NCBI GenBank assembly: GCA_017936605.1
Contig: JAGBFH010000022.1
Coordinates: 916-64,915, forward strand
DNA: 64,000 bases
Origin: Tidjanibacter sp.
Lineage (GTDB): Bacteria > Bacteroidota > Bacteroidia > Bacteroidales > Rikenellaceae
Direction of reading: 5' to 3'
Shown: one piece after another, positions 7,500-64,000 of the stretch
How positions within the stretch are numbered: the stretch's first letter is position 1
Layout: every line of letters begins with the position of its first letter
The notes under the pieces: model-generated
Seen by the model: the letters and a program-made list of their open reading frames with translations, nothing else
Databases searched by the model: none
What the model was told of the DNA's origin: nothing
Program-made: the position numbers and the translations under genes

Positions 7500-7544
7500 A
7501 TACCTCGGGGTCTTAAAATTTTTATTCCGTTATGTGATACTAAA

Positions 7545-7559: not shown

Positions 7560-7604
7560 TATATTTGCACTGCAAAGTTAAGAAATTTATTTCTATTATA
7601 CAAA
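7560..7604. promoter_or_regulatory. Overlapping face-to-face promoters for the terminase unit (+) and cI (-)
   Basis: + strand TATATTTG at 7560-7567; - strand TAACTTTG at 7573-7580 with TTTG at 7601-7604 (20-nt spacing). Confidence 0.65.
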
Positions 7605-7623
7605 TATTTAATTAAATCCAACT

Positions 7624-8013: not shown

Positions 8014-8038
8014 TCGACCGACGACCGACTACCTACAA

Positions 8039-8146
8039 TAAGGTCCTTAGGGTCTTTAAGGTCCTTAAGGTCCTTAAAATCCTTTTTGCCCTTTTCGCCC
8101 TTTTCGCCCTTTTCGCCCTTTCTCAACTCTTAACCCTCAACCCTCA
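8039..8146. repeat. 9-bp and 7-bp period mosaic repeat between the orphan gene and terminase
   Basis: (TAAGGTCCT)n, (CGCCCTTTT)n, (AACCCTC)n. Confidence 0.85.
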
Positions 8147-8149
8147 ACT

Positions 8150-10207
8150 ATGACTTTTCTCGACTTTACCTCGCGGATGTTTCCTTCGTTCCGCACCACA
8201 CCATTCCACGCCCGCTACTATGCACTCCTTGAGGCCTTTGCCCAGGGGCGCATAAGGCGACTTATGATTACCATTCCGCCCCAGCACGGCAAATCGCTCG
8301 GCTCATCGGTGGCACTCCCCGCCTACCTCTTGGGCCTCAACCCCGACCTCCACATAGCCATTGCCTCCTATAGCGCCTCGCTGGCCCAGAAGTTCAACAA
8401 GCGTGTGCAGCGTCTTATAGACACTCCCGCCTATGCCGACATCTTCCCCGACACCACAATCAAGGCCGCAGGACGCTCGGGTGCCTACCAGCGCACAGCC
8501 GAGCTCACGGAGGTTGTGGGCCACACGGGCGACCTTGTGGCTGTGGGCAGAGAGGGCTCCCTGACTGGCAACCCTGTGGATGTGCTCATAATTGACGACC
8601 TCTACAAGGACGCAATGGAGGCCAACTCTCCCACCGTCAGGGAGAACTGCTGGGACTGGTACACCTCCGTTGTGCGCACCCGAGAGCACAACCTCTCGCG
8701 CGAACTTATTGTCTTCACCCGATGGCACAAGGAGGACCTGATTGGCCGCATCTACCAGAAAGAGAGGGTCGTGGAGCTCAAGAACTGGAGCGACATCGAC
8801 ACCCTCCCCGACGGCTGTTGGCTCCACCTGAACCTCGAGGCCCTCAAGACTACCCCCGCCACCGAGCTCGACCCTCGCGGGGTGGGCGAGCCACTCTGGG
8901 GCGAGCGCCACTCGGCCGAGCTGCTGAAGGAGAAACAGAGGCTCGACACGCTCCAATTCGAGGCTATGTATCAGGGGCGCCCGTCGGATGCTGCCGGCCT
9001 GCTCTATGGCGACAATTTTCAGACCTACTCGGCCCTGCCTGCTAAAAACGAAATCATCAGAAGGGCCAACTACACCGACACAGCCGATATGGGCGACGAC
9101 TACCTATGCTCGGTCTGCTACTCGGTGGGCACCGACGGCAACATCTACATCGAGGATGTGGTCTACTCGCGCGAGAAGATGGAGATAACCGAGCCTCTGG
9201 TGGCCGAGATGCTCACCCGCTGTGGCACTCCCGAGGCGACCATCGAGAGCAACAATGGCGGTCGCGGCTTTGCCCGCAACATCCAGCGCTTAGTACCCAA
9301 GTGCTCCATCGGGTGGTTCCACCAGAGCGCCAACAAGGAGTCGCGCATCCTTTCTAACGCCTCCACGGTGTTGCGTACGGTGCGTATGCCGGTGGACTGG
9401 AAGGAGCGGTGGGGCGATATGGCGGCCCACCTTATGGGATACAACCGCCGCTTCCGCACCAATCGCTGGCACGATGCAGCCGATGTGCTGACGGGCATCA
9501 TCGAGAGCGAGTGCAACCGCACCATTCGCAAACGCATCTACGGCACCTCCTTCTCCATACGCAACTATGTGCAGCCCAAGGAGCCCACCCCCACTCTCTC
9601 CTCGCGCCGCCTTACGGAGGCAGATTTTGAGGCTATGGCCGAGCGGTTGGGGGTGGAAAAGGCGGCCCTCAAGGCGGTTGTGGAGGTGGAGTGCTCCTCG
9701 CGTGGCGGCTTCCTCTTAGACGGCAGGCCACGCATACTCTTCGAGGGCCACATCTTCTGGCAACAGCTCCGCAAGAGGGGTTTCAGTCCCGAGAGTCTGC
9801 AAAAGGCCCACCCGTCAATCATCTATCCCAAGTGGGTGAGGACCCACTATCGTGGTGGTGCGGGCGAGTGGGAGCGCTTCTCGGAGGCGGCAGCCATCTC
9901 GCCCGAGGCGGCGGTGGAGTCGGCCAGCTGGGGTCTGTTCCAGATTATGGGCTTCCACTGGAGCACCTGCGGATGCGGCTCGGTGGAGGAGTTCAGAGAG
10001 CGTATGGAGAGGAGCGAGAGGGAGCAAATGGCCTTGGCAATGAATTTTCTTGAAAAAACGGGCATTGCAAAGTGGCTCAAAACAAAAGATTGGTGTAACT
10101 TTGCACTCAGATACAACGGCAGCGGCTACAAGGCCAATCGCTATGACCAGAAGCTCGCCGCCGCCTACAACAAGTTCAAACAACAAGAACAACACGCAAA
10201 GGAGTAG
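8150..10207 (+). CDS. Phage terminase large subunit fused to an N-acetylmuramidase (DUF3380-type endolysin)
   Basis: Walker A IPPQHGKS, Walker B LIIDD, TRWHKEDLIG, nuclease DTAD..GDDY, IESNNGG, HDAADV; from aa 488 LTEADF..LGVEKAALKAVVEVE..GGF...ILFEGHIF...SASWGLFQIMGFH...FALRYNGSGY. Confidence 0.9.
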   Translation: MTFLDFTSRMFPSFRTTPFHARYYALLEAFAQGRIRRLMITIPPQHGKSLGSSVALPAYLLGLNPDLHIAIASYSASLAQKFNKRVQRLIDTPAYADIFPDTTIKAAGRSGAYQRTAELTEVVGHTGDLVAVGREGSLTGNPVDVLIIDDLYKDAMEANSPTVRENCWDWYTSVVRTREHNLSRELIVFTRWHKEDLIGRIYQKERVVELKNWSDIDTLPDGCWLHLNLEALKTTPATELDPRGVGEPLWGERHSAELLKEKQRLDTLQFEAMYQGRPSDAAGLLYGDNFQTYSALPAKNEIIRRANYTDTADMGDDYLCSVCYSVGTDGNIYIEDVVYSREKMEITEPLVAEMLTRCGTPEATIESNNGGRGFARNIQRLVPKCSIGWFHQSANKESRILSNASTVLRTVRMPVDWKERWGDMAAHLMGYNRRFRTNRWHDAADVLTGIIESECNRTIRKRIYGTSFSIRNYVQPKEPTPTLSSRRLTEADFEAMAERLGVEKAALKAVVEVECSSRGGFLLDGRPRILFEGHIFWQQLRKRGFSPESLQKAHPSIIYPKWVRTHYRGGAGEWERFSEAAAISPEAAVESASWGLFQIMGFHWSTCGCGSVEEFRERMERSEREQMALAMNFLEKTGIAKWLKTKDWCNFALRYNGSGYKANRYDQKLAAAYNKFKQQEQHAKE

Positions 10208-13001: not shown

Positions 13002-13630
13002 TGAGGCCGGAGATAGTCAGCTATATCGAGGAGTGCATCTTGCCTCGCTATGCGGAGTACGATGCGGCCCATCGTCGTGACCACATTGAGGGTGTCATTG
13101 AGCGCAGCCTCGCACTTGCCGAGCACTACCCCGAGCTACACAAAGAGATGGTCTATGTTGTGGCCGCCTACCACGACCTCGGACTTCCCGAGGGGCGTGA
13201 CACTCACCACATCTCCTCTGCACGACTTATGGCCGAGGATGAGAGGCTCAGGGAGTGGTTCTCCACCGAGCAGGTGCAGACTATGCGTGAGGCCATAGAG
13301 GACCACCGCGCCTCTGCCACACGCCCGCCCCGCTCGCTCTATGGGATGATTGTCGCCGAGGCCGACCGCCAGATAGTACCCGAGGTGGTTATGCGCCGCA
13401 CGGTGCAGTATGGCCTTGCCCACTACCCCCACCTCACTCGCGAGGAGCACTGGGAGCGCTTTGTGGGCCACCTCCACGAGAAGTATGACTACGGCGGCTA
13501 CCTCACGCTCTACATTCCCAACTCCGAGAACGCCCGCCAACTCGAGATTCTCCGCACCATCATAGCCGACAAAACAAGACTCCGCGATCTCTTTGAGGAG
13601 ATTTTTGAAGGGTTGAGAAGAGAGCATTGA
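13001..13630 (+). CDS. HD-domain phosphohydrolase
   Basis: True start at the ATG overlapping the upstream TAA; AAHRRDH, AAYHDLG, EDHRAS, IVAEADR. Confidence 0.85.
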   Translation: MRPEIVSYIEECILPRYAEYDAAHRRDHIEGVIERSLALAEHYPELHKEMVYVVAAYHDLGLPEGRDTHHISSARLMAEDERLREWFSTEQVQTMREAIEDHRASATRPPRSLYGMIVAEADRQIVPEVVMRRTVQYGLAHYPHLTREEHWERFVGHLHEKYDYGGYLTLYIPNSENARQLEILRTIIADKTRLRDLFEEIFEGLRREH

Positions 13631-13810
13631 AAGGGCCAAAAGGGCAAAAAGGGCAAAAAGGGCAAAAAGGATTTTAAGGTCATTAAGGACCTTAAAGACC
13701 TTAAGGACCTTATACTTCAAGTATCAATTCCCTTTTGGCCCTTTCGGCCCTTTCGGCCCTTCCCCTCCCCTAAGTTAGGGGAGGGTCCGCGAAGCGGGGG
13801 AGAGGTCTGT
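13629..13810. repeat. 9-mer mosaic plus REP-like palindrome
   Basis: (AAAAGGGCA)n, (TAAGGACCT)n, (GGCCCTTTC)n, then CCCTCCCCTAA-G-TTAGGGGAGGG at 13763-13785. Confidence 0.85.
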
Positions 13811-17574: not shown

Positions 17575-17950
17575 GGCTGGGAAAGAGCAAAAAGGGCCAA
17601 AAGGGCGAAAAGGGCGGAAAGGCAGAAAAGAGAGATGGGAGAGATGGGAGAAATGGGAGAAATGGGAGAACTTGGCCTCTCGCTAATTTCCTGGAACTCC
17701 CTAATTTCCCTAAGGTCCTTAAAGTCATTAAAGTCCTATGGGGCCTATAAGACTTATAAGACCTATGGGACCTATAAGCCCCATAATCCCCTTTGGCCCT
17801 TTTGGCCCCTTTTGCCCTTTTGGCCCTTTTTAACTCCTCCCCTACGAAAGGGGAGGTTGGGAGGGGTGCTCGAAAATTGCGTGCGCGTCCTCGCGCACAG
17901 GGAGGGTGCCCGAAGGGCGGGAGAGGTCTGTTCTCTGTTCTCTGTTCTCG
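17575..17950. repeat. Large 9-mer mosaic with REP-like palindrome
   Basis: Blocks (AAAAGGGCC)n, (AAATGGGAG)n, (CCCTAATTT)n, (TAAGGTCCT)n, (CTTATAAGA)n, (GGCCCTTTT)n; CCTCCCCT-ACGAA-AGGGGAGG at 17836-17856. Confidence 0.9.
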
Positions 17951-41418: not shown

Positions 41419-41780
41419 CGCGCCTTTTTATAAAAAGGCGCCCCAAAAATTTTTAGGAGATACTTCGTATCTCTGTATTTGCTCTACCCTATTTCGGAGC
41501 CACCCTCACTCGCAGCCGCCGTTGCGGCCGATACTGCGTATCGCTGCAACCTTAAGTCGTAGTTCTACCTACTGCCTTGCTTCGGAGCCACCCTAACAAA
41601 AGTGCCATTCTGGCACAAAAGGCGCCCCAAAAATTTTTAGGAGATACTATGTATCGCTATTAGCGTCTGCCAGGGCTCCTGGGGTTACTAAAGTCCTTAA
41701 AGTCCTTAAGGTCATTAAGGTCCTTAAGGTATTTTACCCTCCAAAAATTTTCAATTTTCAATTCTCAATTTTCAATTCCC
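41419..41780. repeat. Composite intergenic element: B copies 3 and 4 plus 9-mer and 7-mer arrays
   Basis: GCGCCTTTTT-AT-AAAAAGGCGC...GAGATACTTCGTATCTC at 41419-41474, partial copy at 41617-41660, (TAAGGTCCT)n at 41690-41730. Confidence 0.85.
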
Positions 41781-43419: not shown

Positions 43420-43600
43420 GAAAATTGAAAATTGAAAATGGACAATTGAAAATTGACAATGGACAATTGACAATTGGGAGAAATGGGAGAAATGAGAGAA
43501 ATGAGAGGAATGGGAATTTTCCTTAAAAACATTAATGACATTAAAGACCTTAAGGTCCTTAAATTCCCTAATTTCCCTACCCCCCTAATAATTTTGAATT
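43420..43600. repeat. 7-mer and 9-mer mosaic
   Basis: (AATTGAA/C)n, (AAATGGGAG)n, (TAAGGTCCT)n, (TTTCCCTAA)n. Confidence 0.85.
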
Positions 43601-44120: not shown

Positions 44121-44456
44121 TGGGTTATAGAAATTAATAATGTGGTTTTTAATGTTTTTAGTCTAATTCGTCACGCGCCATCGGCCCGCTCTACTCTATT
44201 AGACACACGAAGATACGAATTTGTTGCACAAGTTGCAAATTTTTTGTGGTTTTTTGTAATAATTACAGAAGTGGGAGAAATGAGAGGAATGAGAGGAATG
44301 GGAGAGATGGGAGGTTAGGGGCCTTAAGGGTTTTAAGGACATTAAGGGCTTTAAGGACCTTAAGGACCCTAATTCGACAGACCGCTCTCGCCCTTCGGCC
44401 AAACAAAAAGCCCCTCCTTGGGTGGGAGGGGCCTATGGTGTTTGGGAATTGTGGCA

Positions 44457-45359: not shown

Positions 45360-45697
45360 AATAGAGTTACAACTTTATGGTTAGGGCGGCAAAGATACCT
45401 ATTAAAATTGAGAATTGAAAATGGACAATTGACAATTGGGAGAAATGGGAGAAATGGGAGAAATGAGAGAAATGAGAGGAATGGGAGAAATGAGAGGAAT
45501 GGGAATTTTCCTTAAAGACATTAAGGACATTAAAGACCTTAAGGTCCTTAAATTCCCTAATTTCCCTAATTTCCCTAATTTCCCTACCCCCTAATAATTT
45601 TGAATTTTGCACTTCTTTTTAGAGCAATGAATCTAACAGCACAACAAGGGCCGACCTGAAGCGGTCGGCCCTTGTTGTGGGTTTGTAGCACACTCTG

Positions 45698-46269: not shown

Positions 46270-46455
46270 TTACAGAAATGAGAGAAATGGGAGGAATGAG
46301 AGGAATGGGAGATTAGGGAGATTAGGGACTTTAAGGACTTTAAGGTCTTTAGGGTCCTTAAGGATTCTCCTCATTAACCTCACTAAATTCACTAAATTCC
46401 CTTTTTGCCCCTTTGGCCCTTTTAGCCCTTAAGGACCTTAGGGACCTTAAGGAGT
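46270..46455. repeat. 9-mer mosaic
   Basis: (AATGAGAGG)n, (TTAGGGAGA)n, (TTTAAGGAC)n, (GCCCTTTTA)n. Confidence 0.85.
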
Positions 46456-49457: not shown

Positions 49458-49730
49458 CGCAGCTTTTTGTAAAAAGCTGCACCAAAAACTTTTAGGAGAT
49501 ACTTTGTATCTCTGTATTTGCTCTACCAGGGATTCCAAGGGTCTTGTTCCTTAATCTCCTTAAGGTCATTAAGGTCCTTAAGGTCTTTAAGGTCTTTCTC
49601 TCTGCCTTACGACCCCAATTTGCTGTAGATTGCGGAGGGATTTTTGTGCCGCGCAAGGTAGCAAGTCCGCAGTTTACTGGGGTAAATGAGGAACTTGCTA
49701 TCCGCAGGGCGGTGCAAAAATCACCCGCAA
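49458..49730. repeat. Composite element between nusA and infB: B copy 5 (49458-49513), 9-mers, A copy 7 (49631-49730)
   Basis: Same motifs as the other A and B copies. Confidence 0.85.
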
Positions 49731-51012: not shown

Positions 51013-51410
51013 CGCAGCTTTTTATAAAAAGCGAAACTTCTTAGTCGCTTTTTTATAAAAAAGCTCCGCAAAAAATTTTTAGGAGATACTTCGTATCTCT
51101 GTATCCCAATGCAATAATTCTACCTTCGGCCTTGCTTCGGAATCCCAGTACTCGCTGGCACCGTTGTGCCCGATACTGCGTATCGCTGTGTTTACCAGGG
51201 GCTCTATGCTCCTTAATCTCCTTAAGGTCATTAAGGTCTTTAGGGTCTTTAAGGTCCTTAGGGTATTTTCTACCATCCCCAAAAAATCAACTGCCCCTGA
51301 AAATTCGTATTGCGAGGGGATTTCAAGGCTTGGTTTTGATTTTGCTCCGCAGTTTACTGGGGTAAATGAGGAAGCAAAATCGAAAGCGTAACGAAGAAAT
51401 CACCCGCAAG
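51013..51410. repeat. Composite element between rimP and nusA: B copy 6 (51013-51100), 9-mers, A copy 8 (51311-51410)
   Basis: Same motifs as the other A and B copies. Confidence 0.85.
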
Positions 51411-52105: not shown

Positions 52106-52522
52106 CTACTCCGCCCTTCCAAAAAGGTTCTTTAGGCGACGGCCGAAGAGGAGCATAACATCCACAAAACGCCTTTCGCCCGTAACCACCGAGGCGTTCT
52201 CGAGATAGCTCCAGAACTCCACACCACAGACAAAGCCTGTGAAGAGGTTGGCAAGTCGCAGTTCGACAAAGGGTGAGGCGATGCCGTCGAGCAGCCAGGC
52301 CAGAACGATGCCCGCCATCACGAACGACAGTTTGCGGATAGTTTTCCAAGCCTTGCGGCTCTCGAAGCGCCAAGTGCGCCCCTCGGTGCGGGCCCTGCGA
52401 CGGTCTGCCAGAACTCCCGTGAGGAAGTCCACCGCCACGAACGCCATCGCACACACAAGCAAAGGCTCTACGGGTGCAAAGAGTGAGAGCACCCCCGTAA
52501 CGATTCCAGTCAAATACTTCAT
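52106..52522 (-). CDS. Phage holin (family 4-like)
   Basis: TM helices; VDFLTGV and EFWSYLEN motifs. Confidence 0.8.
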   Translation of the reverse strand: MKYLTGIVTGVLSLFAPVEPLLVCAMAFVAVDFLTGVLADRRRARTEGRTWRFESRKAWKTIRKLSFVMAGIVLAWLLDGIASPFVELRLANLFTGFVCGVEFWSYLENASVVTGERRFVDVMLLFGRRLKNLFGRAE

Positions 52523-52569
52523 TTTTTAGTTTTTAGTTTTCAGTTTTAAGTTCGTCAGTTTTCAGTTTG

Positions 52570-53049
52570 TCAGAGGACAATGCCGCCCGAGAGTGAGGTG
52601 CGGGAGCGCACATTCTCCTCGGGGGAGTAGAGGGGGCCGAGGGTGGGCAGCAGGGCGAGTTGCTCGGTGGCGGCATCGATGAGTGCCTCGGCGTCGTGGC
52701 GCAGTCGTCGTAGGGCCGCACGCATCGCCGCACTATCGGCCACCTCGAAGCTCTCGCCCGAGAGCCTCACGACACCCGCCGTGCCTACCTGTACGGCCAG
52801 CGAGGGCAAAACTACCGAGGCTACATAGAGTGCCAAGGGTACTTTAAGAAACTCCTCGGTAAACTTTGTGCACTCCTCCGAGGGGTTTTCGGCAACAAGC
52901 AGGTCGAAGAGCTCTCGGCCCACCACAGGGCGCAGAAAGCGTCGTTGGGCGGCAAGGATGGTGTGGGCGGGCACCGCCTCCTCGCGGAGGGTGTTGGTTG
53001 TGCCGAAGGCAATGGAGATGACCTCGGCAGAGGTGATGAGTTGTTTCAT
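52570..53049 (-). CDS. Putative head-tail adaptor/connector protein
   Basis: 159 aa, helical; directly downstream of the portal; AQRRFLRPVVGRELFD and KVPLALYV resemble Bacteroidetes phage adaptors. Confidence 0.55.
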   Translation of the reverse strand: MKQLITSAEVISIAFGTTNTLREEAVPAHTILAAQRRFLRPVVGRELFDLLVAENPSEECTKFTEEFLKVPLALYVASVVLPSLAVQVGTAGVVRLSGESFEVADSAAMRAALRRLRHDAEALIDAATEQLALLPTLGPLYSPEENVRSRTSLSGGIVL

Positions 53050-53055
53050 AGCTTC

Positions 53056-54300
53056 TTAGTCTACATTTTTGAGTCCATACTTGGTTACCTGTGCCACATA
53101 GTACTGCTCCTCGGGGTTTGTGGGGTCGTAGTCGAGGCCGTCGGCCTTGCGGGCCTCCCAAACACGCATATAGAGGGGCTTGGAGCGCGAGGGCGGGCGG
53201 TTGACAATCTCCAGTCGTGAGCCATCCTCACCCAGGATGGTGCTCACCAACGAGCGTATGGGCTCCATAAGCTCCTCCTGCTCGCCGAGGATGACCGTAT
53301 TGAGGGCCACCTCCCACTCGTGCAGGATGCGCTCCGAGGAGAAACCGCCGGCATAGTCGAGGCCGCTGAGGCTGCGGAACCACGAGTGGGCAATGACGAT
53401 GTCACCCGTAGCCTGGTCGTGGAGCTCGCGCCAGTCGCCCTCGTTGGTGGAGGTGATGGGGATGAAGCGCGAATTGTCGCCGTCGTCGCACTCCTTGACC
53501 ATAAACATCACCTGACCGGGCTTGCCCGAGAACTTGCGCTGTGCTGCGGCGGCCAGCTTCTCGGCCTCCTCCTCACTCTCCACGCCACCATCGAGGAGCA
53601 TCACACCCGAGAGCTGAAAGGAGTTATCCAGACGCGAGATGTTCCAGTTGTCGGTCTTGTAGGCGATGGTCGACACATTCATACCTGCAATGTAGGGCGG
53701 CACGCCATAGTGGGAGAACATAGGCTCGTAGTCCTTGTAGTGAATCATCGTGTGGAGGTTGCCATCGGCCCCCTGCTCGAAGAGCGGATAGAGTGGCACG
53801 CTAACCGCCTCGGAGCGCTGATAGCGGGTCCAGTCGTGGTGGAGCACCACGCGGCCTGAATCCTTGGCCAGTCGGCAACGCGAGGCATCCTGATGGAAGA
53901 GTGCCAGAAAGGAGTGGGCCGAGTCGGTCACTACCTCCACGAAAGCGTTGCCAAAGAGGCACTTATCGAAGGCCAGCTTATTGAGCACCTGACGCAACGA
54001 CTCGCCCTGAGAGTTGGCCTCCTCCACGAAGGCCTTGGTGCGGATGGCCTCATCGGGCAGGCTGAAGCCCGCACCCGAAATGTAGTCGGCCTTGTCGTTG
54101 ATGATGCGGCGGTGGGTTGTCGAGCAGCGCGACAGAAGCGAGAGGGCCAGGGGAAAGAGGTTGTCGCTACCCCAGTTCCAGACCTCGCCCTGCTTTGCGC
54201 CGGAGCCACCCACCTGAATGGGCAACCCGAGGCCCCCTATGGAGCTCTCGGCTCGAGGGGAGAAGATTTTGGGGGTATAGTTGATTTTTGATTTTTCCAT
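53056..54300 (-). CDS. Phage portal protein
   Basis: WGSDNLFP, STTHRRIINDKADYISG, FGNAFVEV, YGVPPY, NSFQLSGV, IVIAHSW. Confidence 0.8.
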   Translation of the reverse strand: MEKSKINYTPKIFSPRAESSIGGLGLPIQVGGSGAKQGEVWNWGSDNLFPLALSLLSRCSTTHRRIINDKADYISGAGFSLPDEAIRTKAFVEEANSQGESLRQVLNKLAFDKCLFGNAFVEVVTDSAHSFLALFHQDASRCRLAKDSGRVVLHHDWTRYQRSEAVSVPLYPLFEQGADGNLHTMIHYKDYEPMFSHYGVPPYIAGMNVSTIAYKTDNWNISRLDNSFQLSGVMLLDGGVESEEEAEKLAAAAQRKFSGKPGQVMFMVKECDDGDNSRFIPITSTNEGDWRELHDQATGDIVIAHSWFRSLSGLDYAGGFSSERILHEWEVALNTVILGEQEELMEPIRSLVSTILGEDGSRLEIVNRPPSRSKPLYMRVWEARKADGLDYDPTNPEEQYYVAQVTKYGLKNVD

Positions 54301-54331
54301 TTTTCGCTTGAAGGTTAATGGGTTAAAGATG

Positions 54332-54360
54332 AAAAAGGGGCCCGAAACGAGAGGCCCCTT
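54332..54360 (-). terminator. Internal terminator after the capsid and putative major tail genes
   Basis: On - strand AAGGGGCC-N10-GGCCCCTT followed by TTT. Confidence 0.7.
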
Positions 54361-54374
54361 AGGATTCTTTTGCG

Positions 54375-54863
54375 CTACAGTTCGAGGGGACTAAAGGGGG
54401 TCGCACTCCAACCATCCTTCGAGCCGAGGAGCATCCTCACCGTAGGGTTGTCGCTACGCTTTGTGGCGCTGTCGCCCTCGGCCTCCAGCAGCCTCAGGGG
54501 ATAATCGGCACCACCGCGGGGCGAGCACCCAACAACAAAACTCCTACCCGAGGTGAGAGTGAGTACGGCGACCACACCCTGACGGCTGAGGGCTCTTACC
54601 TGTCCGAGCAACTCGGTCCTTAGACCACTCACGACCATCTCGAGGTGGTGCTCCACCCCACCCTCGGAGTCTATGCGCTCGAGATAGCGGGCTCCGCCAT
54701 CGGCAAAATAGACCTCCAGAGGGGTCGCCTCGGGCGCCAGACTACAGTTCGTAAAGCCCGCCGAGGAGCGGTAGCCCCCGAAGCTCACATCGTCCACCTT
54801 GTAGAGGACCACCGAGCGCAAGCCCCCGAAATTACGAGAGCACGATGCAGAGGAGCCTTCCAT
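54375..54863 (-). CDS. Putative major tail (tube) protein
   Basis: 162 aa right after the capsid gene; N-terminal CSRNFGGLRSVVLY pattern typical of Bacteroidetes siphovirus tube-like proteins. Confidence 0.5.
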   Translation of the reverse strand: MEGSSASCSRNFGGLRSVVLYKVDDVSFGGYRSSAGFTNCSLAPEATPLEVYFADGGARYLERIDSEGGVEHHLEMVVSGLRTELLGQVRALSRQGVVAVLTLTSGRSFVVGCSPRGGADYPLRLLEAEGDSATKRSDNPTVRMLLGSKDGWSATPFSPLEL

Positions 54864-54865
54864 AA

Positions 54866-56089
54866 CTACTCAATCGGGAACAACATCTCGCCAGCCTTGA
54901 CAAGAGTCAGTCTATACATCGTTGCGCCCTCCACCGAGAACTCAATCTCATTGTGACCCTCATAGAGGCACAGGGACTCACCTTCAATGATGGGCTCGTA
55001 GTTGTCGTCATAGGCAAAGGCCCAAATCTCTTCTGCCCAGGGCTCAGGGGTGTTGCAGTTGCACTCAATCTTCAGCACATCGCCATCAAGAGAGCTCTCC
55101 AGATGGCCAAGGGGAGCACCCACAGCAAAGGAGAGAAGCTCGGGCAGGAGGTAGTCGCAACCGGCCATAAAGATTGCCCTCTGGCGGTTCTCCATAAGGT
55201 CGGGGTTGTACCACATACGCACCTCGGTGCCGGGCATATCGTTGGTGTTGACAGCCAGGGCGAGGTTGCGGCGGTCGGTGAGCAGTGCGAAGGAGCCGGG
55301 CAGGTCGAGGGCCTGCTCCTTGTAGCCGTTGAGCTGCACATCTACCACGGGGATGCCGCGATAGAAGAGCCCGTCACGGCCCTGCTGCTTGGCCAGATAG
55401 GCGGCCTCAATGGCCACACCATCGAGCTCCTCCTCGTAGGCATTGTAGACATCGGTGGTCACAAAGAATGCCAACTGGCCCTCCGAGCGCAAGGAGCGCA
55501 ACTCCTCGGTGGCGTTATCCCAGAGCCTCTTCAGAACGGCCTCGGCCCAACCGCTCTTGCCTTCATTCACATAGGCAAAGCGGCGAATCTCCTCCTCGTT
55601 GCAGTCGTAGACAATCTGCTTGACGAAGCCGTCGAAGGTGTCCAATACGCCATTGTCACGATCTCGGTTGCCATACCACATTGTGGCCCTCACGCTCTCG
55701 GCAATGGAGGCTCTGAAGAGCGAGGTCTCGGCCTCCTCGAGCTCGGTGCCCGAGAGGTCGTCGAGGTTCACATCCGCACGACCTGTGATGAGCTCATAGA
55801 CGGTCGAGAAGTAGTTGTCGGCCGCATAGGCCATCTCGGCCTTGACCTTGTGGAGCTTCATCTCCTTCTGGAACTTGTCGGCAGGCGCACCGCCGCTCCA
55901 GCCACTGGAGGTGAAGCGATTGAGGATGTTGCCGTCGCGCTTCCAGAAGTGGAGCGTGGTGGGCACGGGCATATTGTACATCACTTTGATGCCGAGCTGC
56001 TCGGCGTTGCTACCGGTGAGCATAGGGCGGAAAAAGATGTTGTCGAGCCTCTGTCCCGAGTAGGTCTTGATACTTTCGATTTTACTCAT
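54866..56089 (-). CDS. Major capsid protein with ~80-aa C-terminal extension
   Basis: Follows the ClpP-type protease; capsid-like segments MWYGNR..TFDGFVKQI, FFVTTDVYNAYEE, YRGIPVV, NLALAVNT, RAIFMAG. Confidence 0.7.
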   Translation of the reverse strand: MSKIESIKTYSGQRLDNIFFRPMLTGSNAEQLGIKVMYNMPVPTTLHFWKRDGNILNRFTSSGWSGGAPADKFQKEMKLHKVKAEMAYAADNYFSTVYELITGRADVNLDDLSGTELEEAETSLFRASIAESVRATMWYGNRDRDNGVLDTFDGFVKQIVYDCNEEEIRRFAYVNEGKSGWAEAVLKRLWDNATEELRSLRSEGQLAFFVTTDVYNAYEEELDGVAIEAAYLAKQQGRDGLFYRGIPVVDVQLNGYKEQALDLPGSFALLTDRRNLALAVNTNDMPGTEVRMWYNPDLMENRQRAIFMAGCDYLLPELLSFAVGAPLGHLESSLDGDVLKIECNCNTPEPWAEEIWAFAYDDNYEPIIEGESLCLYEGHNEIEFSVEGATMYRLTLVKAGEMLFPIE

Positions 56090-56124
56090 TGTTGTCTTGT
56101 TGTTTTTTTAGTGATTAATTGGTT

Positions 56125-56400
56125 GTTTTTGGGGGATTGCAAGGGGGGTAAGGGGTTGCAAAGGGTTGTAGGGGAATTTAGGGAGTTTAGGGAGTTTAGG
56201 GAGTTTAAGGTCCTTAAGGTCTTTAAGGTCTTTAAGGTCCTTAAGGTCCTTAGGGTCCTTAAGGAAAACTCCCATTTCTCTCATTTCTCTCATTTCTCCC
56301 ATCTCTCCCATCTCTCCCATTTCTCCCATTTCTCCCATTTCTCCCATTTCTCCCATTTTCTGCCGAGGCAAAACCCTCTACAATCAACCCTCAACTCCTC
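56125..56400. repeat. Host 9-mer mosaic inside the phage-like operon
   Basis: (TTAGGGAGT)n, (TAAGGTCCT)n, (TTCTCCCAT)n between the protease and capsid genes. Confidence 0.9.
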
Positions 56401-57352
56401 TTCTTATGGCCTCTCGGAGGCTCTCCATATCGGCTGCATAGGCTCCGCTGTTGCCCGAGAGTTTGGGCACACCGTTGGGTGCGGGGTCGTCGCACTCCTT
56501 CACGCGGGTGGGCTCGGCCGTATGGAGTCTCGAGGGTGGCATTGGGGGGCTCTGCTGCTCACTCTTCTCGGCCTGCGAAGGGGCCACTGAGGGACCACCG
56601 TTGGCGGAGGTGGCATTGACGGGTAGGGGGTTGTTCTTTGCAAGGCCCACACGCTTTAGGACCCTACCCCACGCCTCCGAAAGACGCTCAGCGAGGGGCT
56701 TGGGAGGTAGGGGTGTGAGCCCCAGGAGGGCAATCTGGCCACGAGCGTCGTCGGTGATGGGCGAGGAGGCTATGATGCTGTCCACCAATCCCGCCTCCAG
56801 ACACTCCTCGGGCGAGAGCCACACACCCTTGCCACCATTGCGGTTCATCAGCTGGCGATACTCCTCGGGGGTGCGACCCGCAGCAAGGGCATATATCTCC
56901 GCCAGACGCTCGTCGCTCTTGTCGAGAAGCTCTTTGGTGGCGGCCAGTGAGTGGCTGTTGCCCTCCACGGCGCTCTCGCAGCAGTGTATGAGGTAGAGTG
57001 CGTTGGCCGAGATTTCGCGGCACCCCTTGGAGGCGGCCTGAGCGATGATGGTTGCGGCCGAGGCCACATAGCCGTAGCAGCGGGTGATGACCTCCACGCC
57101 CAGCTCGCGTGCCGCATCGTAGATGAGTAGTGCATCGGCCAGACAGCCGCCCGTCGAGCGGATATTGAGCACCAGTCGGTCCACACCGCCACTCTGGCGA
57201 ATCTCCTCCAGCGCACTCTCGAAGCGCTCGTAGGTGGCCACGCGGCCATCTTCGGTGCCGAACTGTTCCACCTCGGGGGTGCCGAGTATGCCGTCGATGT
57301 CGATGGTGGCGACCCTCAGCGAGGTGGCGATTTTGTTGTTTGATTCTTCCAT
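56384..57352 (-). CDS. ClpP-type prohead protease with C-terminal scaffold-like tail
   Basis: IDIDGILG, LNIRSTGG, GYVASAATII (catalytic Ser), YLIH (His), WLSPEECLEAGLVDSI; Pro-rich tail. Confidence 0.88.
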   Translation of the reverse strand: MEESNNKIATSLRVATIDIDGILGTPEVEQFGTEDGRVATYERFESALEEIRQSGGVDRLVLNIRSTGGCLADALLIYDAARELGVEVITRCYGYVASAATIIAQAASKGCREISANALYLIHCCESAVEGNSHSLAATKELLDKSDERLAEIYALAAGRTPEEYRQLMNRNGGKGVWLSPEECLEAGLVDSIIASSPITDDARGQIALLGLTPLPPKPLAERLSEAWGRVLKRVGLAKNNPLPVNATSANGGPSVAPSQAEKSEQQSPPMPPSRLHTAEPTRVKECDDPAPNGVPKLSGNSGAYAADMESLREAIRRGVEG

Positions 57353-57378
57353 AATCTTTCTTTTCTTAATCGGTTTTC

Positions 57379-57639
57379 TTATCGGTAGATGTAGCCTACG
57401 ACCGTTCCGTAGGAGCAGTTTACGGCCTCGGCGACCAGGTGCATAGCCTCTATCTTGGGCACCCCCTGCCGCTGGAGCTGAGCCACTCGCTCACGCACAA
57501 CAAAGGCCTTGGCGGCCGAGGGGGCTATAAGGCCGTTGGAGATGAGGAACTCTATGGTCCCACACGAGGTCATCCCCCTGCAACGGGAGAGCAACAGGGC
57601 CTCCACATCACGATCCAACTTGGTTTGCGCGGCTGCCAT
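57379..57639 (-). CDS. Small protein with a possible C-terminal HTH
   Basis: 86 aa; VPKIEAMHLVAEAVNCSYGTVVGYIYR; ATG overlaps the upstream TGA. Confidence 0.65.
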   Translation of the reverse strand: MAAAQTKLDRDVEALLLSRCRGMTSCGTIEFLISNGLIAPSAAKAFVVRERVAQLQRQGVPKIEAMHLVAEAVNCSYGTVVGYIYR

Positions 57640-57806
57640 CACTCCACAATGTTTGCTTGTTCCACAACGGCCCTGACGGCCTGCTGAGCTGCTGTTATCT
57701 CGCTCTCCAGGACATAGACCTTCACTTGTCTAAGGGCCGAGGCGATGGCCGAGGCGAGCTCCTCGATGGTGAGGCTCACGGTTTTGGTTTCGGGATTGTA
57801 ATTCAT
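57639..57806 (-). CDS. 55-aa protein resembling a tape-measure C-terminus (not in the ORF track)
   Basis: Manual translation MNYNPETKTVSLTIEELASAIASALRQVKVYVLESEITAAQQAVRAVVEQANIVE; host codon bias; TGA overlaps the next ATG. Confidence 0.7.
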   Translation of the reverse strand: MNYNPETKTVSLTIEELASAIASALRQVKVYVLESEITAAQQAVRAVVEQANIVE

Positions 57807-57839
57807 AACGCTTGCAATGTTTTCTTCTCATTCTTCACA

Positions 57840-60221
57840 CTAAATTGTCGTCAGCACAACCTTGGTCGAGGGGCTCGCGGGGTTGTAGTCCACAATCTCC
57901 TCCAGTCGGCAGAGCACGGGCTCACCGTCAATCTTCACCAGGTAGTGGGCCCTAAAGTCGTGCTTTGTGCTGTTGGGGACCACAATCTGCTCCACCTCAT
58001 CTGGGCGCAGAGATACATAAAGAGAGAGGCGACGCGAGTGGTTGAGCGTATCTACACGCTGCCTCCAGTAGCGCTCGAGCCCCTCGACCCCCTCGCGGTC
58101 ACAGAAGAGCAGCGAGGAGGGCTCGCCCGCAAGGGACCCATCGTCGAAGAAGGTCAGAAGCGGATACTCTCGCCCCATACCCGAGGGGTACTCTAAGCTC
58201 TCGCCCACAGGGAGGGTCTTGAGTCCGCGGTAGTGGACAATCTTGGGCAGGAAGTTGTGGTAGTGGAGCGCCTCGGTCGCGGAGCTCTGCTTGTCGCCCA
58301 CCATCAGCAGTGAGGCCGAGGGCGAGGCCGAGAGGGTGCCCGAGGTGGTGAGGGAGGCTGTAAAGAGGCTGTTTTCGACCCTGCGGGTGCCCTCGGTGGC
58401 GAAGATGTTCTCTATGGCTGCACTCCACGCGCCATACTCCTCACCCGCCTCACTCTGCTCCTCGAGCTCTTCGACCGCCCTATCACCCTGACGATAGGTT
58501 AGCTGGAGCCTCTGGTGGTGGTCGCCACCAAGTTCCTCAACCACAATACCCTTTGTCACATCCACCCTCTCGGACCAATCTACCACCACCCGCGGGTCGC
58601 ACCACTCGCTGCGGGGCTCAATGCAGACCTTTCTGTCGAGCGGGTCGGTGTAGATTTGTAGGTCGAAGAGCTCCTTGAGGGCGGTGAGCAGGTCGAGCCC
58701 CGTGAAGGGGTAGTTCATAACATCGCGCCAGGAGAGTTCCGCACCCTCGGCAGGATGGGGTATGAAGATGGGGCGCAGGCTACTACCCCTGAGGAGCCTC
58801 ACCTCCAGCGGCTCTGCGGGGCCCATAAAGCAGAACATATCGAAGTACTTGGGCTCCTCGGGCGAGCACTCGCGGGCCTTGGAACGCAGGGTCACATCAA
58901 TCATCGTGTCGCCATACTCGTGGACATTGCCATCATAGATGGCCCAGTCCGACATAGGGAAGTAGGCGATGCCATCTCGGACCATCTCCAGACGCGCTCC
59001 GATGACGGGCCCAGAGAAGGAGTGAGAGAAGGTACCCTCACGGAAGGTTGTGGAGAGCAGTCGGTGCTCCTCGTAGTCGTCGGGGGTGAGGTTTGCGGGG
59101 TTGGCATTGGGATTGGTGATAACCTTGGCGTAGAGGTTATACTCGGCCCCCTCCACCATATCGAACACTATCAGCGTGTAGGTGTGATTGGCCTCCAGAG
59201 GGTACTTGCGATGGTCGGTGAAGGTGTTGCGGATGGGCACCACCACCCTATCTCCAAAGGAGGGCTGTATGGTCGAGAGGCCCTCGAGCAGCTCACGGCT
59301 CTTTATGCGGTAGCCGGTTTGGAGGCGCAGTCGGTGCTCAAAGGCCACCCACACCGGAGTGGTGGGGGTGAAGCAGATGCGCCCTGTGGAGTCCACCCCG
59401 AAGCAGCCACGATTGTAGCTCCCGTGCTCACCGTCGGGCACATCGACCAGATTGCCCACAGTCGCAAAATTGGCCAAGTGGTCGGCGTAGACCCTGCCGA
59501 ACTCATCGGCAAGAGCCACCGCCGAGTCCTCCTTCTTGAAGGCCAGGAAGTCCATCTTCTCACCCCACCCCTCATAGCTCCGCTCGCTCCATCGGCCGCT
59601 CATATAGAGCCCTCTGAAGAAGTCCGAGTCCATAAATTCCGACTCAACGGCATAGCCTGCCTTGGCGAAGATGGCCCTCACAAGCAGACCGATATTAACG
59701 AACGGGTGGTAGCTATCGGGCAGGAGGCGGTTGTGGTGGCCCTCGTCGCACACCCTACCCTCGTGCTCCACGGGAAAGAACTTCAGCATCGACTCCCCTC
59801 CTTGCAGTCCCTCACGGATAGCATCCTCGGTGTAGCTGAAACTCTCCTCGGGCAGCAGAGCCTGAATACTCTCGGCGGCGACCTTCACCCACTCGCGAGC
59901 ATTGCCGATGATATTGAAGCGATAGAAGCCCTCGGGGCCCAGTTGCGAGGCTGTGAGATAGATTGTGCCCTCCAGAATCACACACCCATCCTCCTCCACG
60001 CGTCCGGTGTGGAGCGTGTGGTTGAACATCCCAGCCGTCAGCGGTTGTTCGCAATCCCCCATAAGGCTGCGGTTGAGCGGTGTAGAGGGAATGGTGATAC
60101 TCTTGGAGTAGCCCGCACGGCCCCACGAAGTAGAGGTGAGCGAGGCCATAGAGAGCGAGATGGATATCTCCGAGGAGGTGTCCATATCGGCCTCCACATT
60201 GTCTATAAAGAGTTTTATCAT
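57840..60221 (-). CDS. Phage tail protein (baseplate/hub-like)
   Basis: MIKLFID..ADMD...RAGYSKSITIPSTPLN N-terminus and PLDRKVCIEPRSEW...VVDWSERVD, as in Bacteroidetes siphovirus tail proteins. Confidence 0.7.
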   Translation of the reverse strand: MIKLFIDNVEADMDTSSEISISLSMASLTSTSWGRAGYSKSITIPSTPLNRSLMGDCEQPLTAGMFNHTLHTGRVEEDGCVILEGTIYLTASQLGPEGFYRFNIIGNAREWVKVAAESIQALLPEESFSYTEDAIREGLQGGESMLKFFPVEHEGRVCDEGHHNRLLPDSYHPFVNIGLLVRAIFAKAGYAVESEFMDSDFFRGLYMSGRWSERSYEGWGEKMDFLAFKKEDSAVALADEFGRVYADHLANFATVGNLVDVPDGEHGSYNRGCFGVDSTGRICFTPTTPVWVAFEHRLRLQTGYRIKSRELLEGLSTIQPSFGDRVVVPIRNTFTDHRKYPLEANHTYTLIVFDMVEGAEYNLYAKVITNPNANPANLTPDDYEEHRLLSTTFREGTFSHSFSGPVIGARLEMVRDGIAYFPMSDWAIYDGNVHEYGDTMIDVTLRSKARECSPEEPKYFDMFCFMGPAEPLEVRLLRGSSLRPIFIPHPAEGAELSWRDVMNYPFTGLDLLTALKELFDLQIYTDPLDRKVCIEPRSEWCDPRVVVDWSERVDVTKGIVVEELGGDHHQRLQLTYRQGDRAVEELEEQSEAGEEYGAWSAAIENIFATEGTRRVENSLFTASLTTSGTLSASPSASLLMVGDKQSSATEALHYHNFLPKIVHYRGLKTLPVGESLEYPSGMGREYPLLTFFDDGSLAGEPSSLLFCDREGVEGLERYWRQRVDTLNHSRRLSLYVSLRPDEVEQIVVPNSTKHDFRAHYLVKIDGEPVLCRLEEIVDYNPASPSTKVVLTTI

Positions 60222-60250
60222 AGCGATTTCTTATCAGTTATTGTTGGGTT

Positions 60251-61243
60251 CTACCATAGTTGACTCTTTCTCGAGGGGCGCAGGGTCACATCTATCGACA
60301 TAGCCCCCTCGCCACTACATCTACACACCGACTCCTCAATGGTGCAGGGCCTCCACTCATCGCCCTCGAGCCTCCAGAGGCGGGGTGCCGAAGTAAGCCC
60401 CCTCACAAAGTCCATCTCGCCACGCGAGAGCAGACCGCTACGGAGCCTCAGGCGACTCCAACTCTCCACCGCGAGTGTGTGGGTGCCACTCAGGGTGTCG
60501 CTCTCGCGCCTCTCCACCTGCTGGTGCTCCTCGGGCTGCGAGCGGAAGGTGTAGTGGCGCACAGCACCATAGGCATCGAGCCACGCCACACGACAATCCC
60601 CCTTTGCCGACGGCACCACAAGGTAGTCAATGACACCCTTGAGCAGGCCGCCAATCCACACCCTCAGATCCAACTCCACACTCTCCTCCTGCTGGTCGAG
60701 TGCCGAGCGCAAATCCTCAAACGAGTAGGTCAGCGTATAGAGGCCCGAGGAGGGGCACACATAGCGCAGCAGACGCTCGGAGGTGTCGCTCTGGGGGGTT
60801 GTAACATCCACAATGACACCATCATCCTCCTTCAGATAGAGCGACAATTCGTCAAACTCGTCGGGAGAAATGACCCTTCGCTGTCGGGCAGGACCCACCA
60901 TTGCCGAGGGCTCCAAGGCCACCACATTGGCCCCAAACCTCGCCAGAGCACTTCGCTCTCCATCCTCACCCACGGCAACACTCAGTGCCACCTGGCGACC
61001 CGCGGGCTGCTCCAACCTCAGAGAGCCTCGCACCACTGGCTGGGGGTCCAACATACGACGAATGATTGCTCGGGGCGAGGAGTCAATCACCGAACGCCCC
61101 GCATAGCGACGAGCACCCAACCTCTGGCCCTCGCTGTCGAAGAAGTATATCTCGGTACTCTCCGCAGGGTCCACCTCCTCGAAATGGAAATAGTTGTCGG
61201 CCAAAATGGGGCTAAAGTCGGCCGGAATAGATATCAATTTCAT
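60251..61243 (-). CDS. Phage tail protein (distal-tail-like)
   Basis: C-terminal VAWLDAYGAVRHYTF...LRSGLLSRGEMDFVRGLTSAPRLW pattern. Confidence 0.6.
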   Translation of the reverse strand: MKLISIPADFSPILADNYFHFEEVDPAESTEIYFFDSEGQRLGARRYAGRSVIDSSPRAIIRRMLDPQPVVRGSLRLEQPAGRQVALSVAVGEDGERSALARFGANVVALEPSAMVGPARQRRVISPDEFDELSLYLKEDDGVIVDVTTPQSDTSERLLRYVCPSSGLYTLTYSFEDLRSALDQQEESVELDLRVWIGGLLKGVIDYLVVPSAKGDCRVAWLDAYGAVRHYTFRSQPEEHQQVERRESDTLSGTHTLAVESWSRLRLRSGLLSRGEMDFVRGLTSAPRLWRLEGDEWRPCTIEESVCRCSGEGAMSIDVTLRPSRKSQLW

Positions 61244-61261
61244 AAGTTCAGTATTTTAACT

Positions 61262-61672
61262 TTAGTTCATACACTCCACACACTCCATCCTCAAACTGAG
61301 GCTCACGGCACACTCGCCCGCAATGGTGAGCATACGCTCCTCGGGCTTGAGCTCCAGAAGCTCCACCGCGGCCACAGATGAGGCCTCACCCAAGAGCGCC
61401 ACAAAACTCCCTGCCGAGTCCATCAGCGAGGCCATAGCCTCACGCCTCGACTTAGCACCTATTACATTGTCGCTCATTAGTTTAATTGTGACATCATACT
61501 GCACCCTGCGCTCCTTTTCGCCCTCCATAGAGCCGGCTTCCGCCCAGGCAAAAGAGGCCATCGGAAAGCCTTTGGATAGTAGCGTTTGATGAAGGTCCGA
61601 CTCGAGGGTCGGATTGTACCCGAGGCTCTCGGCAATGGACCATAGGGCCGTAAATAAGGATTTGTAACTCAT
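61262..61672 (-). CDS. Putative tail completion/terminator protein
   Basis: 136 aa, first gene of the operon; size and alpha/beta pattern fit, no firm motif. Confidence 0.45.
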   Translation of the reverse strand: MSYKSLFTALWSIAESLGYNPTLESDLHQTLLSKGFPMASFAWAEAGSMEGEKERRVQYDVTIKLMSDNVIGAKSRREAMASLMDSAGSFVALLGEASSVAAVELLELKPEERMLTIAGECAVSLSLRMECVECMN

Positions 61673-61702: not shown

Positions 61703-61718
61703 GTTCAATTTCTGAACA
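61703..61718. promoter_or_regulatory. Candidate repressor operator, copy 2
   Basis: GTTCA-ATTTC-TGAAC(A); 13/15 identical to 7545-7559; overlaps the predicted transcription start. Confidence 0.6.
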
Positions 61719-61747
61719 AAGGTAGTGCAAGCAGCGCCGCTTGTCAA
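61717..61747 (-). promoter_or_regulatory. Promoter of the phage-like structural operon
   Basis: - strand TTGA (61744-61747), 19 nt, TACCTTTG (61717-61724). Confidence 0.7.
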
Positions 61748-61879
61748 GCACTATTTTCCCTACGGATGACACATTTTTCCTCTTTTCTTGAATACAAACG
61801 AGCACAATAGACAGTGCACCAACAAGATAAGAATAGTGCAATTTTTCAACTTTTATTGAACTTTTTGCCGAAAGCAGAA

Positions 61880-62160
61880 AGTTGAAAGTTGACAATTGAA
61901 AATGGAAAATTGAAAATTAAGGTCCTTAAGGTCCTTAAAGTCCCTAAGGACTTATAGGGCTTATAGGACATATAGGGCATATAGGCCCTTTTGGCCCTTT
62001 TAGCCCTTTGGGCCCTTTGGGCCCTTTATTCCCTCCCCTAAGTTAGGGGAGGGTGAGCGAAGCTCGGGAGAGGTCTGTTGGCGGGCAGAGAGTTGAAAGT
62101 GAGTATAGGGCTTATGGGGCTTATAGGTCTTATAGGTCTTATAGGTCCCATTGTCGGTCG
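61880..62160. repeat. 7-mer and 9-mer mosaic plus REP-like palindrome
   Basis: (AATTGAA)n, (TAAGGTCCT)n, (CTTATAGGG)n, (GGCCCTTTT)n; CCCTCCCCTAA-G-TTAGGGGAGGG at 62031-62053. Confidence 0.9.

Positions 62161-62232: not shown

Positions 62233-64000
<1,768 letters not shown>

Follow-up and report, generated by a model that had tools for sequence, protein, structure and literature searches.

A phage-derived, two-locus chromosomal system conserved across the Rikenellaceae and its possible role as a gene transfer agent

What does a compact operon of phage structural genes do when it sits between core genes of a bacterial chromosome and brings along no gene for its own replication or integration? 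The question is raised by a 64,000-nucleotide stretch of DNA from Tidjanibacter sp. (Bacteroidota, Rikenellaceae; assembly GCA_017936605.1, contig JAGBFH010000022.1, positions 916 to 64,915), called the window below, in which such an operon lies between groEL and rimP. A first reading of the sequence (the original prediction) had taken it for a maintained particle resembling a gene transfer agent (GTA). The analysis presented here leads us to view the operon as one of two loci of an anciently domesticated siphophage, a chromosomal system that would package and transfer host DNA. As a whole this statement is, in our judgment, probable though far from assured. Confidence is high for one part of it, namely that the system is domesticated and that its two loci are linked by a repressor; packaging of host DNA with transfer, as predicted from gene content, falls slightly short of what we would call probable.

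The operon, referred to as locus B, occupies positions 52106-61672 on the minus strand and consists, as originally described, of 11 intact, co-oriented open reading frames (ORFs) flanked by core genes, namely groEL (62233-63858) and, at the opposite end, rimP-nusA-infB. The groEL gene ends with its own hairpin terminator, followed by a 560-bp spacer up to the first ORF of the operon. No integrase, replication or recombination gene was found at locus B or elsewhere in the window, and no att-like direct repeats flank the locus except 9-bp tandem words. Read in the direction of transcription, the ORFs encode a conserved virion-module protein of 136 amino acids (aa) (g136, 61262-61672), a 330-aa beta-sandwich tail protein (g330, 60251-61243), a predicted tail hub or tail-tip protein of the Tal type (g793, 793 aa, 57840-60221), a 55-aa remnant of a tape measure protein (g55, 57639-57806), a small conserved protein of 87 aa (g87, 57379-57642), a 322-aa ClpP-type prohead protease with a low-complexity C-terminal extension (56384-57352; PF00574, 1.9e-24; phrog_94, 2.5e-33), a predicted major capsid protein of 407 aa (54866-56089; phrog_1623, head and packaging, 1.3e-9), a conserved virion protein of 162 aa (g162, 54375-54863), a 414-aa portal (53056-54300; PF04860, 1.1e-11; phrog_11226; TIGR01540), a 159-aa DUF6712 protein (52570-53049; PF20459, 3.1e-6) and a 138-aa holin (52106-52522; PF05105, 5.7e-10). 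A terminator-like hairpin with a T-run is predicted between g162 and the portal gene (54335-54360, minus strand; 9-bp stem with 6 GC pairs in a consensus scan).

Together with the large terminase of the second locus (PF03237), the portal, protease and predicted capsid make up a Caudoviricetes head module. The capsid gene follows the protease gene, and its product, for which a PDB sequence profile search gave no meaningful match, is assigned as the likely capsid by phrog_1623 and position. In every locus, and likewise in the phage relatives described below, the DUF6712 gene follows the portal gene, a position that makes its product probably the head-tail adaptor. No match in Pfam, PHROGs or NCBIfam was obtained for g136, g330, g793, g55, g87, g162 or the locus A protein g129, and PDB sequence profile searches returned nothing meaningful for g793, g330, g162, g136 or a 257/312-aa family found in relatives. 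The original labels of ClpP protease, capsid, portal and holin stand on family matches; for those of a small helix-turn-helix protein (g87) and a putative tube (g162), neither a family nor a PDB match was obtained. Among the three ORFs originally called tail-type, the label suits g793, with its hub fold, and g330, the probable distal tail protein; it could not be verified for g136.

The second locus, locus A (6813-10207), lies 42 kb from locus B, and both loci together span 54.9 kb. It encodes on the minus strand a 228-aa CI/LexA-like repressor (6813-7499; HTH_3, PF01381; Peptidase_S24, PF00717), which is divergent from a packaging operon on the plus strand. The latter contains g129 (7624-8013), an element-specific 129-aa protein encoded upstream of the terminase, and a 685-aa fusion of the large terminase (TerL) with an N-acetylmuramidase (8150-10207; PF03237, PF22530, PF11860, 3.2e-66). 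TerL takes up residues 1 to ~470 of the fusion (Terminase_6N and a T7-type RNaseH-like nuclease) and the muramidase endolysin, in frame, residues ~504-677. A terminase, an endolysin and a repressor had been reported about 42 kb away; they are there, terminase and muramidase being one fusion protein, and the GTA-like layout, with neither replication nor integration gene and with a packaging and regulation module at a second locus, is real. The fusion is limited to the closest relatives, where it is open in three genomes and interrupted by an internal TAG in one more copy. In the rest of the family TerL stands alone (~470 aa), and Alistipes hominis has an SLT-type lysin after the holin.

An Ala-Gly pair, a GDSM motif and a downstream Lys are visible in the repressor, consistent with the Ala-Gly cleavage site and Ser/Lys dyad of an S24 peptidase. 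Its orthologs across the Rikenellaceae are 70-98% identical, and each adjoins a g129-like gene and TerL; from genome to genome this trio adjoins different, unrelated housekeeping genes. The distance between TerL and capsid genes in relatives is ~1-3 kb in two genera and 0.7-1.2 Mb in some relatives. The g129 protein has few close homologs, with identity dropping fast from 98 to 51%, and homologs are encoded upstream of TerL in loci L156, L158 and L159 (E 2e-9 to 2e-19). It is a candidate substitute for the small terminase (TerS) or a candidate activator. That it is a homolog of phage TerS was not supported, as no similarity between the two could be detected.

The system is widespread in the family. 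A scan of one genome per prokaryote species gave 457 stretches that encode a relative, and the best 80 of these were all from Rikenellaceae: Tidjanibacter, Alistipes (including the cultured A. hominis New-7, locus L064) and further genera. A capsid homolog was found in 23 of the 24 other Tidjanibacter genomes, the sole exception being a genome that is 59% complete, and in 122 of 151 family genomes (82 of the 92 of high quality; 24 of 31 genera), almost always as a single copy, at 48-71% identity and with few stops. In the order's other families, 16 genomes were searched and none had one. TerL was present in 130 of the 151 family genomes, again almost always in single copy, and the genera without the capsid are the genera without TerL. 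Searches with the window proteins (tblastn) showed that the order g136-g330-g793-g55-g87-protease-capsid-g162-portal-DUF6712-holin is kept in ~50 loci. Downstream of the operon, rimP-nusA-infB is found throughout Tidjanibacter; other genera have different neighbors, and in Alistipes groEL lies 4-5 kb downstream.

Inheritance was examined by comparing host markers (rimP, nusA and infB) with six element proteins in 15 Tidjanibacter genomes. Pairwise protein distances of host and element were correlated (r = 0.88), and every well-supported clade agreed between the two trees. Ratios of nonsynonymous to synonymous substitution rates (dN/dS; Nei-Gojobori, seven close pairs) were 0.03-0.44, mostly below 0.3, for all eleven genes, and dS was close to that of adjacent host genes. 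Values were low for the portal (0.03-0.10), protease (0.04-0.16) and holin (0.05-0.17), and the small proteins were constrained as well (g55, 0.10-0.22; g87, 0.16-0.31; g162, 0.24-0.30; g136, 0.17-0.44). Orthologs of g87 occur in 60 loci with a median identity of 36%, and the portal is 60-79% identical across the family. TerL and the portal rank with the best-conserved genes that the element has, and the repressor is conserved similarly; DNA packaging is thus likely to be part of the selected function. Family-wide vertical retention under purifying selection is demonstrated here. The original prediction had proposed conserved single-copy presence, synteny, gene trees and dN/dS as the means of telling a maintained, domesticated particle system from a decaying prophage, and on each of them the results support the former.

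The origin of the system can be traced to a phage lineage with living members. In IMG/VR, 39 loci had a related capsid, and in two groups of contigs (23-44 kb) the hub and protease genes were separated by ~5 kb of additional genes. One of these contigs, IMGVR_UViG_3300000279_000005 (43,967 bp; loci L148, L146 and L099), is a temperate siphophage. Its early region encodes a CI-like repressor and antirepressor, an HNH endonuclease, RecT, an exonuclease, a DnaC-like loader and a DNA methyltransferase. The packaging genes, TerS (phrog_606) and TerL (E 2e-177 to the window TerL), are accompanied by a neck and tail region encoding proteins of 312 aa, 136 aa (the g136 homolog), 154 aa (Neck1/tail completion), 331 aa and 823 aa and a 1070-aa tape measure (phrog_20660); by a head region with protease, capsid, a 181-aa protein (the g162 homolog), portal and DUF6712; and by a late region with a 119-aa protein, a 1352-aa tail fiber, further genes and a holin. 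The order shared with the chromosomal element is TerL, 136-aa, 331-aa, hub, tape measure, protease, capsid, 181-aa, portal, DUF6712 and holin. The temperate relatives (38-44 kb) are collinear with the chromosomal element, so the unusual order of modules in the window is ancestral to the phage lineage and not a rearrangement in the host.

Identity to the phage relative was 57-62% for TerL (58% with the window TerL), capsid and portal, and the other structural genes were far weaker: g330 matched the 331-aa protein at E 8e-20, g793 the 823-aa protein at E 2e-64 and g162 the 181-aa protein at E 2.7e-5 (phmmer). The g136 protein matched the 136-aa phage gene that precedes the tail-completion gene (L146:9137-9547; phmmer E 1.2e-4) and a 143-aa protein of A. 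hominis (BLASTP E 1.3e-7), which itself matched the phage 136-aa protein at 6e-23. Missing from the chromosomal system, relative to the phage, are the early region (apart from the divergent repressor), TerS, the 154-aa and 119-aa genes, the fiber and the genes that follow it, and nearly all of the tape measure. Copies of the Alistipes type keep two upstream genes, of 108 aa and 257 aa, the latter a homolog of the phage 312-aa gene; both have been lost in Tidjanibacter. The idea that the 257/312-aa gene encodes the tail tube was dropped, as its conserved sequence looks helical and has no family match. It is established here that the system descends from a known phage lineage and has since lost the tape measure, fiber, TerS and replication genes.

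Among the 50,697 GenBank phage records compared, the nearest to TerL were B40-8-type Bacteroides siphophages (49% identity). The portal gave remote matches, plus two records named 'Bacteriophage sp.' in the 60-80% identity band. For the capsid and hub the sole match was locus L161 (MT838736.1, 1-7414), an unverified, unannotated 7.4-kb human fecal contig from Mexico. This contig is a fragment of the present type of element, and were it to come from a preparation of virus-like particles (VLPs), this would be a hint of such DNA inside particles.

The AlphaFold2 model of g793 (predicted local distance difference test score, pLDDT, 90; predicted template modeling score, pTM, 0.85) was matched by Foldseek to the PDB entries of the Milano baseplate (8fqc_C1, probability 1.00), the MuSo2 43-kDa tail protein (3cdd) and Mu gp44 (1wru), and further to Listeria gp18 (3gs9), the monocin tip (9j1k_L) and the lambda and Bxb1 tail tips, so that a tail hub fold is well supported by the model. 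For g330 (pLDDT 93) the model consists of beta-sandwich domains; Foldseek matched it to Ig-like sandwiches, to a chain of the phage 80alpha baseplate (6v8i_AB) and, with template modeling scores of 0.7-0.78, to uncharacterized proteins of Bacteroidota siphophages. From this fold and the place of its gene directly upstream of the hub gene, g330 is likeliest to be the distal tail protein.

The ORF at the position of the tape measure is 55-250 aa long in chromosomes, versus 1070-1482 aa in phages. The alignment of g55 to the 1070-aa phage tape measure (E 6e-4) pairs its residues 28-54 with residues 1041-1067 at the C-terminal end of the phage protein, and residues 25-53 of g55 are 66% identical to the C terminus of a 202-aa remnant in A. 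hominis (E ~1e-9). That remnant has the same position as g55 and a C terminus that also matches the end of the phage tape measure, and is thus intermediate. By these alignments g55 is the C-terminal tip of the tape measure. What the window retains of a siphovirus tail is the hub fold and a tape measure down to 55 aa; no tube gene was recognized among its proteins in Pfam, PHROGs or PDB profile searches. A head, an adaptor, a tip complex and a minimal tape-measure plug with no recognized tube gene would suit a stub tail in this genus.

The two loci appear to share a regulatory sequence. At locus A a palindrome of the form TTCA-N5-TGAA, TTCAATTATTGAA, lies at 7545-7557 between the repressor gene and g129, abutting a TAtaTTTG box, and a second copy lies inside the repressor gene (7330-7342), ~215 bp from the first. 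At locus B the promoter region (61704-61747, minus strand) contains TTGACA (61742-61747), a TAccTTTG box (61717-61724), which is the TAnnTTTG housekeeping promoter of the original prediction, and the palindrome TTCAGAAATTGAA (61704-61716). These are the 3 matches to TTCA-N5-TGAA in 64 kb, versus 0.77 expected, and all are at loci A and B. A role of the repressor as general SOS regulator of the host is unsupported in the window, in which the motif is confined to the element loci and none precedes umuDC.

The motif is upstream of the structural operon in 19 Tidjanibacter loci, where it is usually the sole copy in 20 kb. Sixteen of these have it at -32 to -50 relative to the first gene; the remaining three, in which no g136 was found, have it ~480-515 nt ahead of g330, at the corresponding position. 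When the 16 upstream regions were aligned, only TTGACA, TAnnTTTG and the palindrome were invariant amid diverged DNA, with TAnnTTTG 17-18 nt after TTGACA and the palindrome immediately after that. Alistipes has the motif at the start of its longer operon. In the repressor/TerL modules of distant relatives (L046, L074 and L156-L160) an intergenic copy occupies the same place, beside a TAnnTTTG box facing the terminase operon (with one mismatch in L158), and an intragenic copy is found at the equivalent site (~+150 to +165 nt) in L046 and L156-L160. A 4-N5-4 operator design has been reported for Bacteroidetes XRE-S24 SOS regulators (PMC8565304), and TTCA-N5-TGAA agrees with it. This motif is a putative repressor operator, conserved across genera, through which the repressor may bind at both loci.

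In composition the element matches its host. The correlation of relative synonymous codon usage between element and host genes was 0.98, equal to that among host genes. The tetranucleotide CATG was absent from locus B (~35 expected) and from locus A (12 expected), and was observed 5 times in the whole window against ~242 expected. It was likewise absent from another Tidjanibacter locus (L016; 0 versus 65 expected), and present at expected levels in A. hominis (62 versus 58) and in the phage relatives (57-67 versus 54-58). CATG avoidance is thus a trait of the genus Tidjanibacter and not of the element lineage, and in its extremity it suggests a genus-wide restriction pressure specific for CATG. 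The spacer between protease and capsid genes contains arrays of host-type 9-bp tandem words (GGGAGTTTA, TTAAGGTCC and CTCCCATTT; 56172-56358; Tandem Repeats Finder), and over 12 host intergenic regions in the window contain these words too, as do the spacers around both loci. Host codon bias, CATG avoidance and a host intergenic repeat in this gap had all been claimed originally, and all hold.

From these features a cycle can be proposed. The repressor would bind the TTCA-N5-TGAA operators overlapping the promoters of both loci until DNA damage or another signal leads to its self-cleavage, upon which both operons would fire. Proheads would assemble and be filled with DNA by the terminase. That DNA is proposed to be chromosomal because the element has neither a replication module nor a recognizable specificity subunit. 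The stub tail tip would be attached to the filled head, holin and muramidase would lyse the producer cell, and the released particles would carry host DNA, as GTAs do.

Several points weigh against this interpretation. The system is known here from its genes alone, from which particles, packaged DNA and transfer are extrapolated. No small terminase was recognized in the chromosomal system and no tail tube gene in the window, and three small proteins (g136, g162 and g87) have no assigned role. The regulator is phage-type (CI-like), control by a host system being typical of characterized GTAs, and the umuDC genes of the window have no preceding operator. A long-read study of VLPs (PMC12946183) assigns no packaging event to the Rikenellaceae, which are listed solely in its differential-abundance table. 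Finally, parts of the system may be dispensable or decaying in places, since four Alistipes-type loci (L044, L046, L064 and L078) have no protease at the usual place (tblastn, g87-capsid interval) and since the homolog of the 257-aa accessory gene in L049 (3399-4106) has a stop codon. These four loci, of the A. hominis/A. merdigallinarum group, have just a 112-aa ORF in the g87-capsid interval, with capsid and portal intact; the 257-aa gene aligns only partly in L048 and L049 and appears to be decaying in that lineage.

Four other explanations were weighed. Outright decay, in which the loci would be a cryptic, functionless prophage remnant, has in its favor the missing replication, integration, TerS and fiber genes, the loss of most of the tape measure and the occasional lineage-specific losses. 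We find it scarcely tenable, as all eleven ORFs are intact, the genes persist mostly in single copy across the family with 48-71% capsid identity and few stops, dN/dS is mostly below 0.3 and the regulatory DNA is conserved as a phylogenetic footprint. That related prophages integrated repeatedly and were reduced in parallel is very improbable, even though the flanking genes vary between genera and two trees leave room for it: the phages fall inside the midpoint-rooted tree of portal and capsid, and rooting the TerL tree on B40-8-type phages yields a trichotomy, both of which also count against the single ancient domestication that we favor. When the portal and capsid tree is left unrooted, however, the phages with a tape measure are all found to the same side of one branch (support 91), and host and element trees agree within the genus. 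Genera also have derived traits in common, namely the short tape measure, the absence of a fiber, a g129-like gene in place of TerS and the repressor/g129/TerL module with its operator, and this shared derived layout argues for one domestication rather than several.

The remaining two explanations accept a maintained particle and differ as to its purpose. One holds that the heads are filled with DNA for something other than transfer, as in a PBSX-like killer or defective particle, a programmed lysis with DNA release, or a decoy against related phages. PBSX packages host DNA and yet kills (discussed in PMC12946183), an SOS-type repressor with lysis genes would suit an altruistic lysis program, and the tail has been cut down to a tip with no recognizable tube. 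A killer, however, needs no strongly constrained terminase and portal, yet both are among the most conserved genes, and the hub and tip proteins that DNA delivery would require are also under purifying selection; on balance we regard this explanation as unlikely, though deserving of attention. The other makes the element dependent on a helper: the module would make and fill heads, and a related 38-44 kb phage would supply tube, tape measure and fibers, in the manner of a capsid-forming satellite, except that the element itself is immobile. There are indeed related temperate phages whose portal, adaptor and neck-region genes are homologous, and Tidjanibacter has lost the 257/312-aa gene and nearly the whole tape measure. 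This seems to us quite improbable given that the element has no integrase, replication or excision function and occupies fixed chromosomal positions, that its own tail-tip proteins and tape-measure tip are under purifying selection although a helper would supply them, and that its near-universal presence in the family is unmatched by any known universal helper.

Read as a GTA, the system can be compared with RcGTA of Rhodobacter capsulatus, CcGTA of Caulobacter, BaGTA of Bartonella and VSH-1 of Brachyspira. Like these, it has head, tail and lysis genes of phage origin at more than one chromosomal locus and no functions for replication or integration; it is vertically inherited under purifying selection with host-adapted composition; and it has a short tape measure, no recognizable sequence-specific small terminase and, by prediction, release by lysis. 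It differs in being of independent origin in another phylum, with Rikenellaceae temperate siphophages and, for TerL, B40-8-type phages as nearest relatives, and in its control, which is apparently exerted on both loci by the retained phage CI-like repressor rather than by CtrA or GafA. It differs also in that no tube gene was recognized and in being known here from genes alone. Judged by its nearest relatives and not by direct comparison with RcGTA proteins, it is not homologous to the RcGTA-type, BaGTA or VSH-1 lineages.

Another likeness is to FpGTA of Faecalibacterium (PMC12946183, Nat Commun 2026), an operon of ~10 kb for head, short tail and lysis with a stubby tail that is near-ubiquitous in a genus of gut commensals; both are compact, near-ubiquitous gut-commensal elements proposed to be GTA-like with stubby tails. 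FpGTA, which that study presents as the human gut microbiome's first GTA-like element, has experimental support, host fragments of 8.4-8.9 kb having been found in VLPs (PMC12946183), whereas the Rikenellaceae system is known from genes alone; the former is from Bacillota and the latter from Bacteroidota, with its terminase at a separate locus with the repressor. PBSX of Bacillus subtilis is likewise an SOS-inducible, repressor-controlled, chromosome-fixed defective phage that packages host DNA and lyses its producer (all of which is prediction for the Rikenellaceae system), but it is a complete contractile-tailed killer made from one locus, in contrast to a tip-only tail and two loci. The capsid-forming satellites known as cf-PICI have integrase, replication/primase, excision and mobility functions, none of which was present in the window or in ~50 orthologous loci.

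Few GTAs have been characterized, and mostly from Alphaproteobacteria. Full-text literature searches found no description of such a system for Alistipes, Rikenellaceae, Tidjanibacter or Bacteroidota. The broadest form of our interpretation, which we offer as tentative, is that of a family-wide GTA of independent origin in the Rikenellaceae, among them Alistipes, a genus abundant in the human gut, and the first in Bacteroidota, in which repressor cleavage acts in trans on two loci and in which the tail was whittled stepwise (1070, ~200 and 55 aa). If true, it would represent an independent domestication in another phylum and would point, within a major gut family, to a way of exchanging chromosomal genes that has gone unrecognized. 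The living phage relatives give an unusually clear view of before and after, in the genes lost and in the shrinkage of the tape measure, and the regulatory design to be tested is simple: one autocleavable repressor, one operator and two loci. Because cultured carriers exist (A. hominis New-7, L064), the question is open to direct test.

Variation was also seen in the capsid gene. The window capsid (54866-56089) has a core of about residues 1-323 and a C-terminal extension of ~80 aa (~324-407) that is found in part of Tidjanibacter; most relatives stop near residue 323-333. Two IMG/VR contigs (L130, 386-7359; L131, 4720-13232) have an insertion of ~6-7.5 kb that splits the capsid gene.

Intergenic DNA throughout the window is made up of short tandem arrays of 9-bp words (TTAAGGTCC, GGGAGAAAT, CCCTTTTGG and TATAGGTCT) and 7-bp words (GAAAATT and AATTGAC). 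Arrays lie at 6672-6786, 8039-8148, 13630-13761, 17582-17830, 41689-41777, 43420-43563, 44267-44372, 45406-45586, 46274-46453, 49548-49594, 51222-51268, 56172-56358 and 61877-62147. A repeat with longer units, three to four tandem copies of 60 bp, is found at 1258-1462, upstream of the umuD-umuC pair (1627-3344).

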